From Syntrophales bacterium (GTDB taxonomy: Bacteria > Desulfobacterota > Syntrophia > Syntrophales > UBA2210), in the NCBI GenBank assembly GCA_963666365.2, contig CAXXNF010000002.1:1984001-2048000 (forward strand): a stretch of 64,000 nucleotides of DNA. The letters run 5' to 3'. This document shows, piece by piece, positions 27,001 to 30,000 of this stretch. How positions within the stretch are numbered: the stretch's first letter is position 1; each line of letters opens with the position of its first letter. Position numbers: made by a program.

Positions 27001-30000
27001 CGCATTTGAAAAGCTTCCAAAAATATTAACGCTGTCCGGCCAGTGCATCTGGATACCTGTTAAAATAAGCAATAATATTAAAAGTGCATGAATCCAATGC
27101 CATATGCGCTCGGCGATCGGATGCAGATATATTTTCTCTGACATGTTCTTATTTTCTCCTCTTGCCGGTAAATCTCAATGCTCCGTGCACTGCACATCCC
27201 ACAAGCGTAAGAAGCGCCAGCAAAATTACAACGACGTCGAGAGCCGGAATTCTATTGCTGCCCACCACATAATTCCCTTTTTCAATAAGCCCGGCGTTGG
27301 TAAATTTCCAATTGGCCAGCGAATAATCCGGTTTTCCTTCAGCCTCTTTCAAGAGAATCGTGTTGTATGTATGACAAAGCTGACAATCGTCAACGGGAGC
27401 TGCCATTGAAGGATCGTGACATACGAGACAATCGGTTTTTTTCAGGTGAAGCTTCGGCTGTTCCAGCCAGTTATGCCGCACGGATGGAGCGGGCTTTAAC
27501 GTAACGAACACATCTTTGTTTGCATCGATTTCCCACGATTCGGCAGCATCCTTTTCCGTCAGAAACAGTTCATCCTTTCCGTGACAGGAAAGGCACGTTT
27601 CGTTTTGTGGGGTCTTCAGTTGAATGCTATGCGGCGTTGCATATTTCCATGTTTGCACTTTGCCCACTTCAGTCAGGGCGTCCTTCACGTAAAAATCAAA
27701 GAGATCCGGACTTACGGGAATATGTCGAACCGTCACATATTGCTCAGGCCGGTCTTCGCTCATTTTCGGATTCATTCCGATTTTGAAGCCCACCTTTGAC
27801 GGCTTTGTTTTAAAATAGGGAGCACCTGATGCGTCTTTACCCACATGACAACTATAACAGTGTTTATAAGGCATCGCGTGACATACTTGACAACTCACCT
27901 TGTCTTTGTGAATCATATGGCTCGGATGTACACGCTCTTTCGCTTCACTTTCGTCTTGCGCCGCTTCATCTTCAGAACCTGCCAATTTATGACACTTTTC
28001 GCACCTTGACCCGTCTGCAACGTCATATCTGTCAAAGGTCTCATGGCTCATGCCGTTTCCGTGCATTTCATCACCGGAATGGCAATCCATACATGACATA
28101 CATTTATCAATACGGTGCACATCACCCTGCACACCCTTATTCTGGCCGTAGAATTCCTTGCCTACCCTGCTTCCGTGACAGGAGGTGCAATTTGTTTCAA
28201 CAGGAGGAGTTTTCTGAAAAATGTGGCCTTCTACGAATCCGCCTTCGACGGAATTGGGACGGCTTACGTGACATTGACCGCAACTGCTGTGACACTTCAT
28301 ACAGTGCGTTTCCATGGCGCAGTCTATTTTTTCACGTACCGATGGATCCGCATTTGCCCTTAGATAAATTTTGTTTTTAAACGGGGCAAGCGTTACATGC
28401 AGATTTGTTTTGTTTTTTTCTGCAATTTCCGGATGTCCCTCTTCATCGTCTACGAAGTGGCACTCGCCGCACTTCTGCACAGGATCGGGATAGGAAGGAT
28501 CTCTCATCAGACCTTCATGTGCCGTCTCATAATCATCGCTTTCAGGATCGCCACCATGGCACTGTTCACAGGATATCTGCCCATGGACATCATCGTCGAT
28601 GAAATCAGAGTCAACCAGCACTTTTTCGTATGGCTCCAACTGAGCCACAGCTCCGCCTCACCCTTCGCCTTCCGATTCAGCGGACTTTTTCTGCTGAGGA
28701 TTTTTCGCTGCAATCTCTTTTGTAATTCTTACCAGCTCTTTCACACTTGTATGGCATGAGACGCAGCCGCTTTCCTCGGCACTAACCATCTGCCCCGCAC
28801 CAAGAAAAACAACAACAAAGATGGCAGCAACAATAACAAAAAGTTCTGACGTGTACCGCGCACACATTATTTTGTGTGCAGAAACCCCTCTGTAAACAAT
28901 GCGTTCTTTCATAACGCCCTAACACATATCAAAAACCGCTGTACGGGTAAAGGTTTTTTTACTCACAGTTACTTGAAAAAGACAGACCTCCCAAATTTCG
29001 GCTTCCAATCCTGGAATCTAGTGCCTGCCCATCGAAGGTTCCTGCATGAAAGCAAGGCCTATGCATAACTCCTGTATTTTGTACCCGCTGTGATTTTACT
29101 TTTTTTAAAAAACATGTTATGGATTGCAGGTAGTGAAAGAAATCTTATTTTTGGAGGTAAAGCTATTATGCGTAATCAGATGGTTTTTAGGAAAGGTCTT
29201 ATCATTTCCATTGCCGTGATTTTAGTGCTCTCATTGTCCGGATATTGTCTGGCGGACAAGACCAGCAAGGATTTTGTAAATGAAGCGAAAAAAACGGTGA
29301 AAGAAATCTCCGTCGCCGATGCAAAGGCAGAAATAGATTCGGGAAAAGTGGCAATAATTCTCGACTGCAGAACGGAGAAGGAGTTTAAAAAAGGACATAT
29401 TCCTAAAGCAATGAATATTCCTCGCGGTCTTCTGGAATTCAAAATTGAAAAGAAAATACCGAAGAAAGACGCCTACATAATTTGTTACTGCGTATCAGGC
29501 GGCCGTTCCTGTCTTGCCTGCAGCACCATGAAAGAGATGGGATATTCAAACTTGAAAAGCATGGCGGGCGGATGGAAGGCATGGGTCAAAGCCGGTTATC
29601 CGATAGAGGAATAACGCTAAAATCAAACGGATAAAACTGGAGGGGAACAATTCTGAAAGGGGTTGTTCCCTTTTTTTATAATCGCACAGTATGCACTGTT
29701 CCGTTACATGTAACTGTGCAAACCCGAAAGTATGTAATTTACCCCGAGATAAGTAAAAATCACGGCAAAAAAACCGAGAATGGCAATACAGGCCATGATG
29801 GTTCCCTTCCATCCCTTTACCAGGCGGGCGTGGAGATAGGCGCCGTAAATCATCCAGGTGATGAGCGACCAGGTCTCTTTCGGATCCCACCCCCAATACC
29901 TTCCCCAGGCAGTATCGGCCCAGGCTGCACCAGTAATTATTCCCAGACTCAGTAAAACAAAACCGATTGAGGTTATTCGATAGGCCAGATCGTCCCACAT

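Follow-up and report, generated by a model that had tools for sequence, protein, structure and literature searches.

Judged from its sequence, the reading frame that had been called as two genes, g03041 and g03040, is a single gene, and its predicted product is exported by way of a signal peptide and has 13 c-type haems, one selenocysteine (Sec) and a terminal membrane helix. The TGA at codon 85 almost certainly stands for that Sec. The gene lies on the minus strand of the window, the whole stretch of 64,000 nucleotides from a Syntrophales bacterium that was analysed, and it belongs to a family of cytochromes whose probable role is in the turnover of sulfur compounds, with a sulfur-carrier protein as partner. 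Taken as a whole, the best explanation would be a one-gene Sec-containing 13-haem cytochrome that is docked to a cytochrome b and reduces sulfane sulfur, and we think that this is on balance probable.

Two open reading frames were called on the minus strand, 28658..28912 (84 aa, ATG start) and 27149..28648 (499 aa, GTG start). With TGA read as U, the window from 27149 to 28912 translates on the minus strand into 587 residues and a stop, and U85 is the sole departure from translation table 11; the initial annotation had described one 587-codon frame split only by a TGA, and this is what the translation gives. The strand opposite to the gene is closed by nine stops, 7 of them TGA. Elsewhere in the window TGA serves as a normal stop, ending 24 of the 54 stop-to-stop frames of at least 250 codons. 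The TGA is not an assembly slip, since the contigs of 4 runs (2 samples, 2 studies) that cover 28400-28950 show no difference at the TGA, some of these runs being possibly the source of the same DNA. The features of the gene are as follows.

27149..28912, minus strand: whole gene of the selenocysteine-containing 13-haem cytochrome c, 587 codons, in one frame with a single TGA and 13 CxxCH motifs; TAA stop at 27149-27151.
28781..28912, minus strand: predicted signal peptide (aa 1-44) with VSA/EE after its hydrophobic core (hydropathy; helix 12-40 in the model; cleavage site as suggested by the sequence).
28751..28765, minus strand: haem motif 1, CVSCH, aa 50-54, 5' of the Sec codon; of the 41 relatives in the alignment 40 have it, and the last has a gap there.
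28658-28660, minus strand: UGA read as Sec codon 85, motif GEG-U-GG, from the read-through translation and the same column in relatives.
28630..28648, minus strand: SECIS-like hairpin, 7-bp stem GUGGCUC/GAGCCAU and loop AGUUG, 12 nt past the U of the UGA.
27488..28594, minus strand: core, aa 107-475, haems 2-11, with a predicted fold like octahaem tetrathionate reductase (structure model and fold search).
27152..27487, minus strand: C-terminal extension, in the long form only, with haems 12-13 (aa 495 and 510) and the membrane helix (hydropathy, alignment and model).
27155-27247, minus strand: predicted C-terminal membrane helix, aa 556-586, with conserved GC..H..LRF and a basic tail, part of the long-form extension.

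The Sec reading rests on the conserved TGA column, the covarying hairpin, relatives with Cys and the presence of tRNA-Sec, SelA and SelB in the genome. The TGA is found in the same G-U-[G/A] loop in all 40 relatives fetched wide (41 of 41 wide loci), and at the Sec site in 78 of 80 further loci, of which one of the remaining two is masked by N and the other was not evaluated. Among 400 genomes of the phylum the codon is TGA, and never TAA or TAG, in 46 of 47 non-self matches, the exception being a match that begins at aa 187. On both sides of the UGA codon the sequence is conserved in one frame among the relatives. Cys occupies the Sec column in 9 of 36 site-spanning relatives, for instance as GEGCGG in P0179, and the same 36 also hold Trp (8), Tyr (5), Arg and others; the variants that are a single base away are Trp, Arg, Leu and Ser. 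A FastTree phylogeny, which carries long-branch warnings, places the Cys and Trp forms nested within Sec clades. With such residues at the column, the Sec site may not be a nucleophile in every form of the family.

The genome has a tRNA-SeC with anticodon tca at C2:2153644-2153741, a SelA match (E 6e-156) and, within a frame of 649 aa, the wing domain of a SelB (E 1.4e-17). The co-occurrence of SelA was tried as a test of the Sec reading and set aside as uninformative, because 371 of 401 genomes have SelA; a SelA match is absent in 2 of the 43 genomes that hold the cytochrome family. The initial annotation had placed a Sec at codon 85, had found the same TGA in every relative that it examined and had listed selA, selB and tRNA-Sec for the genome, and all of this is borne out.

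It had also described a SECIS-like hairpin after the TGA. The hairpin is present, with an energy of -13.5 kcal/mol (45 nt) and GU within the loop, but taken singly the sequence of the window folds no better than shuffles might by chance (z = -1.3), the mean across 41 loci being -1.2. The weight of the evidence lies in its conservation and covariation in relatives rather than in the energy of a single sequence. In 24 aligned relatives 96.7% of the cells pair, both sides have changed in 4 of 8 pairs, and 0 of 500 shuffles reach the score. A swap of Ala and Glu in the peptide (VAPLEP vs VEPLAP) leaves the stem intact, and in other subfamilies hairpins unlike this one take its position after the UGA.

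The CxxCH motifs stand at aa 50, 115, 148, 204, 211, 242, 274, 304, 341, 352, 440, 495 and 510, and the hydropathy profile has two hydrophobic stretches, at about aa 15-46 and at aa 549-582, which agrees with the 13 haem motifs and the C-terminal anchor helix that had been claimed. Relatives with 11 haems are without the C-terminal extension. The model of the core (pLDDT 90.4, pTM 0.88) resembles the octahaem tetrathionate reductase (OTR), with chain 1-431 of 1sp3 aligned to aa 107-475. The second model of the core matches 1sp3_A with Z 8.7 and an rmsd of 4.4 A over 263 aligned residues at 20% identity, the next structural match being at Z 4.0, and with the first model 1sp3_A was again on top at Z 7.9, with nothing else above Z 4.2. 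The similarity is a moderate one, as models that have no clear match often reach a best Z of 7-8. Foldseek with the full model gave no match in the PDB at E 0.001 or better, and sequence and profile searches of the PDB gave only weak, generic multihaem matches. In an alignment of 41 sequences the His residues outside the haem motifs comprise eight that are invariant and one that is found in 36 of the 41, for eleven core haems, so that at least two haems would be without a conserved His as distal ligand, a trait of catalytic haems. The 41 sequences share no conserved Cys apart from those of the CxxCH motifs, and a conserved resolving or haem-ligating Cys like that of MccSep, which is treated further on, is therefore absent.

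The genes that surround the cytochrome are the following.

26521..27144, minus strand: putative cytochrome b partner, 207 aa (PF01292, E 1.3e-27, 97 bits vs a cut-off of 30).
29168..29614, plus strand: periplasmic single-domain rhodanese, divergent (PF00581, E 1.9e-22; the longest ORF runs from 29090, likely start M27).
30543-31868, minus strand: ResB, system II cytochrome c maturation (PF05140, E 5.1e-89).
29704-30546, minus strand: CcsA, system II cytochrome c maturation (PF01578, E 1.8e-48).

The ATG of the cytochrome b gene lies 4 nt past the TAA of the cytochrome, and a GAGGAG is contained in the last part of the cytochrome gene. In NCBIfam the cytochrome b comes closest to the b subunit of thiosulfate reductase, the PhsC equivalog NF011582, with 162.5 bits and thus under the cut-off of 204. 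A cytochrome b follows directly downstream in all seven long-form relatives, and P0032 is a 959-aa fusion in which PF01292 is included. The rhodanese has, as read from its sequence, a signal peptide (a hydrophobic N-terminus) and the catalytic loop YCVSGGRS. A rhodanese adjoins the cytochrome in 29 of 35 clustered loci and lies within 3 kb in 69 of 80, and in P0153 the cytochrome is fused to two rhodanese domains. This fused protein has Tyr at the Sec column, and other non-Sec residues occur elsewhere, so the link to the rhodanese is independent of Sec. Both neighbours named in the initial annotation, the cytochrome b of PhsC type and the rhodanese, agree with the domain matches. It had also counted two flavocytochrome-type reductases and a 21-haem cytochrome to the system. 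The genes downstream on the same strand do code for two FAD_binding_2 flavoproteins with RRGF twin-arginine signals and for a 21-haem, 1005-aa cytochrome, but homologues of the flavoprotein occur in 0 of 80 related loci, and that part of the claim goes too far. Between the cytochrome b and the first flavoprotein gene there is a gap of 513 nt with a terminator-like site, in a scan for promoters and terminators that was not decisive. In the window the rhodanese gene is divergent from the cytochrome gene and not co-directional with it. The ResB/CcsA pair (29704..31868) is a neighbour upstream on the same strand, and the same pair precedes the gene in the related locus L033.

From the sequence we infer that the function is a quinol-driven reduction of sulfane sulfur at the Sec site. 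The anchor helix would dock the cytochrome to the PhsC-like cytochrome b, with which it would be translationally coupled, and electrons from menaquinol would pass over the b haems and the chain of c haems to a catalytic site in the OTR-like core. The Sec, on its glycine-rich loop between haems 1 and 2, would be the nucleophile to which sulfane sulfur is transferred, either from substrates such as polysulfide, thiosulfate or those of the tetrathionate type or from a persulfide on the periplasmic rhodanese, and the Se-S adduct would then be reduced by the haems and sulfide released. The common 11-haem relatives could be soluble versions of the same enzyme that are fed by other periplasmic cytochromes. 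The proposed membrane complex is supported by the 4-nt spacing, by the cytochrome b after every one of the seven long forms and by the 959-aa fusion. Sulfur chemistry as the substrate is still a guess, but it is the best bet because of the pairing with rhodanese and the tetrathionate-reductase-like fold. The link to sulfur is further supported by the fusion P0153, the haems without a conserved His and the precedent of MccSep, or ExtKL (GSU2937-2936), of Geobacter sulfurreducens (NCBIfam NF040886, PDB 9wt8), in which a Sec beside a haem is able to reduce polysulfide and selenite too (Mihara et al. 2026, PMC13510729).

A bolder version of this proposal, to which we give only a small chance, is that the catalytic haem in the OTR-like core would have the Sec as its distal axial ligand, or directly above it, and so form a natural selenolate-haem c centre without a partner Cys. 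Together with the rhodanese, and in the long form with the cytochrome b, it would then constitute a molybdenum-free quinol:polysulfide/thiosulfate reductase, widely used by sulfate reducers, partners of alkane oxidisers and syntrophs, and missed by inventories of the sulfur cycle since annotation cuts the gene at the UGA.

Other explanations must be weighed against the reduction of sulfane sulfur, and one is that the TGA is a true stop, which would leave two genes, a pseudogene or a low level of near-cognate read-through without Sec. The gene callers did split the frame, the window's hairpin is not significant by itself, and relatives with Trp, Arg, Leu or Ser at the site are a single base away from a TGA. 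Yet the downstream piece, whose haems can be attached only after export, is without a signal peptide, no stop codon other than TGA occurs and its column does not vary, the sequence is conserved across the codon in one frame, the hairpin covaries and Cys homologues are known, and we find this explanation very improbable. A different possibility is that the cytochrome is an electron-distribution module and not a terminal reductase, which would pass menaquinol electrons on to other periplasmic acceptors, such as the two TAT flavoproteins and the 21-haem cytochrome, with the Sec as a haem ligand or redox tuner. The presence of the genes for both flavoproteins and for the large cytochrome on the same strand fits with such a role, as do the known Trp, Tyr and Arg variants of the Sec site and the many haems, which are numerous for a simple two-electron reaction. 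We nevertheless consider it unlikely, with the flavoprotein missing from all 80 related loci, the 513-nt gap and its terminator-like site before the first flavoprotein gene, a conserved partner that is a rhodanese and not a reductase, and a core that is closest to the fold of an enzyme; the near-universal keeping of a costly Sec also argues for catalysis.

The same architecture could also work in the oxidative direction, so that thiosulfate, sulfide or a rhodanese persulfide would be oxidised as by TsdA or SoxAX and the electrons delivered to the quinone pool or to periplasmic cytochromes, for example in sulfur disproportionation. Rhodaneses act in sulfur oxidation too. The thiosulfate-oxidising enzymes with a His/Cys-ligated haem have been discussed as a mechanistic mirror of MccSep (PMC13510729). 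However, most of the family's named holders are sulfate reducers or syntroph-like MAGs, the cytochrome b has its nearest likeness in PhsC and the b subunits of hydrogenase and formate dehydrogenase in quinone-linked respiratory complexes, and there is no conserved Cys ligand, and in our view an oxidative role has a rather low probability. It is about as doubtful, or slightly more so, that the protein is a reductase or detoxifier of selenium or tellurium oxyanions, with selenite as the real substrate and a rhodanese that handles selenium rather than sulfur. MccSep reduces selenite as well (PMC13510729), and its ext cluster was first tied to the reduction of selenite and tellurite and holds the rhodanese-like ExtH. 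The only NCBIfam match of our protein is to ExtM of the ext operon, but it is weak (E 2e-5, 23 bits vs a cut-off of 800) and spans 42 residues round one haem motif, and the spread of the family in marine sulfate reducers fits the abundant sulfur species better than trace selenium. The reduction of sulfane sulfur is the explanation that we prefer.

The cytochrome family is found in 43 of 400 sampled genomes of the phylum. There are at least 575 loci in species-representative genomes, reaching Spirochaetota, Chloroflexota-type and other lineages, and 2450 database proteins match it at E 1e-10 or better. Almost all of the database entries are truncated proteins named "hypothetical" or "cytochrome c3 family", the protein atlas offers nothing beyond generic cytochrome names, and the family is absent from Pfam, from NCBIfam and from the available part of the 2026 selenoprotein review. 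Most of the named holders are sulfate reducers or syntroph-like MAGs and not known sulfur respirers, and the cultured ones, Desulfosarcina widdelii PP31 and Dethiosulfatarculus sandiegensis SPR, both have the short form. NF049953, which in the review is selenoprotein DG with the motif "GUxG", was considered as a possible identity and rejected, being a family of 172 positions with no match in the genome; NF049942 has only a weak match, elsewhere in the genome. A further candidate had been pointed out at C2:602704-604728, and as a frame it is there, with 8 CxxCH motifs and one TGA in GKW-U-PP and without a match to any NCBIfam family.

MccSep is the sole characterised multihaem selenoenzyme that we found, and it closed a long-standing gap in sulfur respiration (2026, PMC13510729). 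From its sequence and model the cytochrome family is different, with an OTR-like core, 11-13 haems, none of them ligated by Cys, and the Sec in a loop near the N-terminus. Should it reduce sulfane sulfur together with a rhodanese, this would be an unrecognised route in the sulfur cycle of marine sediments and syntrophic consortia, and Sec-haem chemistry would have a second example, independent of the first. Even if it does not, there is a systematic annotation error that can be mended with one family model.

MccSep and the window's protein have several features in common. Each is a multihaem cytochrome c of the periplasm in which a conserved UGA, with a stem-loop just after it, codes for a single Sec; both genes are split in two by annotation, both are found in Desulfobacterota, and the MccSep cluster also has a rhodanese-like gene, ExtH. 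However, MccSep has 5 haems and not 11-13, its Sec, residue 325, belongs to a D-G-U-P loop in the Ig-like domain at the C-terminus, whereas ours, residue 85, lies between haems 1 and 2 in a G-U-G loop, its Cys239 is conserved and ligates a haem where the cytochrome family has no conserved Cys outside CxxCH, and it is a soluble tetramer, in contrast to the predicted membrane anchor and cytochrome b of the window's protein. The relatives of MccSep each carry 5 motifs and DGUP. NF040886 matches neither our protein (at E 0.01 or better) nor anything in the genome, which is 94% complete, no GEGUGG motif occurs in Data S1-S5 of the MccSep study (PMC13510729), and in the first 200 sampled genomes MccSep is found in 25, the cytochrome family in 19 and both together in none. 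An hhalign comparison with MccSep gave a probability of 91.7% and E 7.6e-7, with U85 placed opposite R83 of MccSep, and a profile search of the PDB found 9wt8 at E 0.054. A distant kinship was rejected as multihaem background, because four unrelated multihaem alignments have the same or a better hhalign score against either family, and the earlier claim that the cytochrome, differing in haem number and Sec motif, lies outside the MccSep family is supported. That it would be a second family, next to MccSep as the only one in print, says too much: MccSep is the only one that we found to be characterised, but the table in the 2026 review lists two more selenoproteins, an octahaem cytochrome of the tetrathionate reductase family (TIGR04315, as annotated in GenBank) and a CXXCH protein of the GSU2204 family.

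For the core, the best structural match, and the only one that stands out, is the OTR of Shewanella oneidensis (PDB 1sp3, TIGR04315). It has eight haems, the catalytic one being ligated by Lys. Oxyanions of sulfur and nitrogen are the substrates of this multihaem enzyme, which works in the periplasm (PMC13510729). The solved protein is without Sec, although the review lists Sec forms of the OTR family. Compared with OTR, the cytochrome family has in addition a haem at the N-terminus, which comes with the Sec loop, and other extra haems; in the long form there are another two haems and the membrane helix. TIGR04315 does not match the cytochrome at E 0.01 or better, and matches another locus in the genome; the tetrathionate-reductase-like gene at C1:117305-118655 was dropped as a Sec comparison, as its sequence runs through two frames and a frameshift seems to be the cause.

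The 207-aa neighbour matches PF01292 and is in this respect like the b subunits of the PhsC/FdnI/HyaC type in quinone-linked periplasmic oxidoreductases. A single membrane helix at the end of the periplasmic electron-transfer subunit, as is predicted here, is also present in formate dehydrogenase-N and [NiFe] hydrogenase. The partner of such b subunits is a molybdopterin/FeS or NiFe enzyme, whereas the candidate partner here is a multihaem c selenoprotein. The closest parallel to the rhodanese is the Sud-Psr system of Wolinella succinogenes, in which a periplasmic rhodanese-like carrier of polysulfide sulfur feeds polysulfide reductase. There, as in the window, a periplasmic single-domain rhodanese would go together with a quinol-linked periplasmic reductase of sulfane sulfur, with which it is encoded. 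Psr is a molybdenum enzyme, whereas the proposed reductase is a haem c selenoprotein, to which the rhodanese would pass its sulfur in a putative transfer between proteins.

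The gene is divided between two ORFs:

window 28658..28912, minus strand, ORF of 84 aa with an ATG start
window 27149..28648, minus strand, ORF of 499 aa with a GTG start

Read with TGA as U, window 27149-28912 is a single frame of 587 codons in which codon 85 is the sole departure from table 11, which confirms the initial annotation, where the two calls had been taken for one frame broken by a TGA. The plus strand opposite was checked for an open frame and is closed by many stops. The read-through product has 13 CxxCH motifs, a hydrophobic stretch followed by VSA|EE at the N-terminus and another followed by GKRRK at the C-terminus, and its AlphaFold model has helices at aa 12-40 and aa 556-586. 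The letters across the TGA are identical in contigs of four public runs (two samples, two studies), although some of these may be the source of the assembly itself. One rival explanation is that the TGA is a true stop; TGA closes 24 of the 54 long frames in the window and is thus an ordinary stop in this organism. The genome also contains Sec machinery, with tRNA-SeC, SelA and SelB found.

When the read-through protein was searched against 400 other genomes of the phylum (E 1e-20 or better), 43 had a match, and 46 of the 47 matches contain the in-frame TGA, the remaining one starting only at residue 187. All 40 relatives fetched with wide flanks have, like the window, the TGA after haem motif 1 in the context G-U-(G/A), with 9-12 more CxxCH motifs in its own frame. 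Scanned by pattern, a set with one genome for each prokaryotic species gave at least 596 stretches, at least 575 of them encoding a relative. In the best 80 of these relatives the TGA stands in the motif in 78, one site being N-masked and one outside the pattern's evaluation, and no residue other than Sec was seen at the evaluated sites. A large protein collection holds 2450 proteins that match at E 1e-10 or better, and the best 120 nearly all start right behind the Sec site and are thus split gene calls.

An exhaustive search with residues 40-135 returned 91 representative proteins; by their matched ranges about a dozen end just short of the Sec position, most begin just past it and about 30 cross it. 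The alignment of 36 site-spanning proteins, 32 from this search and 4 from the large collection, has Cys at the Sec column in 9, Trp in 8, Tyr in 5, and Leu, Ser, Arg, Ala or other residues in the rest. Cysteine homologues, a test for a selenoprotein, are present as judged from this alignment. In a tree of 59 sequences (FastTree only, midpoint root, with long-branch warnings) the Sec forms fall in four deep lineages, and the database proteins P0021 (Trp) and the pair P0063 (Trp) and P0098 (Cys) nest within Sec clades with SH-like support of 99-100. The NCBI MAG proteins P0021 and P0063, and also P0123, which is not among the sequences of the tree, are full-length and have Trp exactly at the Sec column (GAG-W-GG or GEG-W-GG), with a codon one base from TGA; they could be a genuine replacement of Sec by Trp or a sequence error.

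The RNA 3' of the UGA folds as GUGGCUC-AGUUG-GAGCCAU, beginning 12 nt past the U. Compared with shuffled sequence, the window's hairpin by itself is not beyond chance (z = -1.3). Across the 24 relatives that align without gaps it is paired in 96.7% of cells, both sides have changed in 4 of the 8 pairs (12 cells), the observed covariation was reached by none of 500 shuffles, and pairing falls to 31-49% once the partners are slid. One compensatory change turns VAPLEP into VEPLAP, swapping Ala and Glu in the peptide and keeping the stem, and two more distant subfamilies (G-U-A-G-A-P-P and A-G-U-G-V) have different hairpins at the same distance. Judged by this comparison, the hairpin is conserved as a structure. 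We regard it as nearly certain that codon 85 is selenocysteine, which leaves a true stop improbable, and the Sec reading of the gene is very likely.

Pfam finds generic multihaem domains only in the product and NCBIfam no family, its sole match being ExtM over 42 residues, far under the cut-off. Most relatives are soluble, with 11 haems and 420-470 aa, and in one subgroup the last haem motif is CX3CH. Compared with the 11-haem relatives the window's protein is a long form, with two extra haems and a membrane helix. Among the matches listed of the species-genome scan, the long form is full-length in seven loci:

five loci labelled Syntrophaceae or Syntrophales
one locus labelled Pseudomonadota
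one locus, L077, where the match starts at aa 88 because the start is N-masked

The first structural model, of the whole protein, was moderate (pLDDT 77) and the second, of residues 45-475 from a 58-row alignment, was good (pLDDT 90.4, pTM 0.88). Foldseek gave no match in the PDB with the first model, and an exhaustive structure aligner ranked 1sp3, the Shewanella octahaem tetrathionate reductase, first with both (Z 7.9 over 229 residues; Z 8.7 over 263 residues, whole chain), the next hits to the second model being other multihaem proteins at Z 4.0 or below. The score is moderate but well clear of the others, and we read the modelled core, aa 107-475, as a probable tetrathionate-reductase-like fold. 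The TIGR04315 model of that reductase family does not match the product, which is thus not a member. In 41 sequences the core has 11 haem motifs but just eight invariant His outside the motifs, plus one in 36 of the 41, and no Cys beyond those of CxxCH is conserved; these His are too few for the core haems, so that at least two have no conserved His as distal ligand.

The cytochrome b (207 aa, PF01292) has its ATG 4 nt past the cytochrome's TAA, with a GAGGAG ahead of it inside the end of the cytochrome gene, and its best NCBIfam match, under the cut-off, is the thiosulfate reductase b subunit. A PF01292 cytochrome b follows directly downstream in all seven long-form loci among the matches listed, and in proteins of about 960 aa the cytochrome is fused to extra haems and a membrane domain, which in P0032 contains PF01292. 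Of all neighbours the best conserved is a rhodanese, which has a signal peptide and the loop C-x-S/T-G-G-R. It adjoins the cytochrome in 29 of the 35 loci whose cytochrome the clustering recognised, and in 69 of 80 further loci a self-built rhodanese profile matches no more than 3 kb away, usually immediately downstream and in the same orientation; in the window the rhodanese is divergent and shares its upstream region with the cytochrome gene. The CX3CH subgroup has double rhodaneses as neighbours, and in P0153 two rhodanese domains are joined to the cytochrome in one protein. The neighbourhood first proposed stands for the PhsC-like cytochrome b and the rhodanese, but the two flavoproteins and the 21-haem cytochrome, which lie beyond a 513-nt gap, are not part of the family's conserved surroundings; a flavoprotein homologue was found in none of 80 related loci.

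In three relatives (L034:5950-7908, L036 and L062) the short Sec-cytochrome and its rhodanese have as neighbour a 13-haem cytochrome without Sec, 555-671 aa long and accompanied by a PF01292 cytochrome b of its own. By hhalign this cytochrome is the closest paralogue (98.8%, 349 columns), and it may be, as a separate gene, the membrane module that forms part of a single protein in the window.

Several other genes of the window deserve mention:

window 22627-26007, minus strand: two paralogous FAD_binding_2 flavoproteins (512 and 516 aa) with twin-arginine signals RRGF and no haem domain, candidate periplasmic reductases of unsaturated acids
window 19495-22512, minus strand: 1005-aa cytochrome c with 21 CxxCH and an MtrC/MtrF-like domain match; the next ORF (18924-19511, 195 aa) belongs to no Pfam family
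window 9527-16446, plus strand: hydrogenase accessory cluster (HycI-type maturation protease, HypD, HypF, HypE-like AIR-synthase-fold protein), including a second PF01292 cytochrome b
window 32582-33891 and 37392-38654: DUF364/DUF4213 putative metal-chelation protein, MobB, and a ParA/NUBPL P-loop protein fused to a dinitrogenase FeMo-cofactor-binding domain, cofactor-assembly genes close to the cytochrome cluster

By its sequence the product is exported and rich in haem, carries one Sec and a membrane anchor, and has a coupled cytochrome b and, as its conserved partner, a periplasmic rhodanese. Electrons would pass from quinol over the b haems and the c haems to the active site, where Sec would attack sulfane sulfur as a nucleophile, the sulfur arriving free or on the rhodanese, and sulfide would be released reductively; the analogies are MccSep and the tetrathionate-reductase fold. 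Sulfane sulfur reduction is a reasoned guess. Against a purely Sec-centred mechanism stand the Trp, Tyr and Arg forms, one Tyr form even being fused to a rhodanese, and the protein could instead be an electron-distribution module. The same protein might also work in the oxidative direction, or selenite could be what it reduces.

An octahaem TIGR04315 gene is present in the genome itself (C1:117305-118655), divided over two frames (E 4e-56 for model positions 1-173, E 1e-100 for 157-440), an apparent frameshift or assembly error. Its product has a membrane helix with His at its C-terminal end, and the start of a PF01292-like cytochrome b comes next, an anchor-plus-b arrangement common to this gene and the one studied. 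The second candidate of the initial annotation, C2:602704-604728 (L169:301-2346, minus strand), was confirmed as a frame of 681 codons with 8 CxxCH and one in-frame TGA, in GKW-U-PPATR. It has no NCBIfam family (best NrfB, 23 bits), is not found by the genome search with the MccSep model NF040886, and could represent a further multihaem selenoprotein.

In MccSep (PMC13510729) there are five haems, haem 2 is ligated by Cys, and Sec325 lies in an Ig-like domain on a D-G-U-P loop; the window's protein shares none of these features, and NF040886 matches neither this protein nor anything in its genome. A distant kinship was considered and rejected: hhalign of the family against an MccSep alignment of 14 read-through genes gave 91.7% and E 7.6e-7, but four unrelated multihaem alignments score equal or better against either family, so the similarity is background. 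The separation from MccSep proposed earlier is thereby upheld. MccSep occurs in 25 and the window's family in 19 of the first 200 sampled genomes with an overlap of 0; this is suggestive of the two being alternatives, but about 2.4 joint genomes are expected by chance and related genomes are not independent. The table of a 2026 review of prokaryotic selenoproteins, as far as accessible, includes ExtKL, a GSU2204-family CXXCH protein and an octahaem cytochrome of the tetrathionate reductase family. In the accessible passages no entry fits the window's family, and the sole one with a GUxG motif is a different family of 172 positions. No paper on the family was found in full-text literature, though one may exist in subscription journals, or an entry in the complete tables and supplements of the review. 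The family is thus distinct from MccSep and, as far as the literature is searchable, undescribed in print. It belongs among the multihaem cytochrome c selenoproteins, a kind already known, and is of interest for its wide distribution, its accessibility to tests in cultured strains and its consistent mis-annotation.
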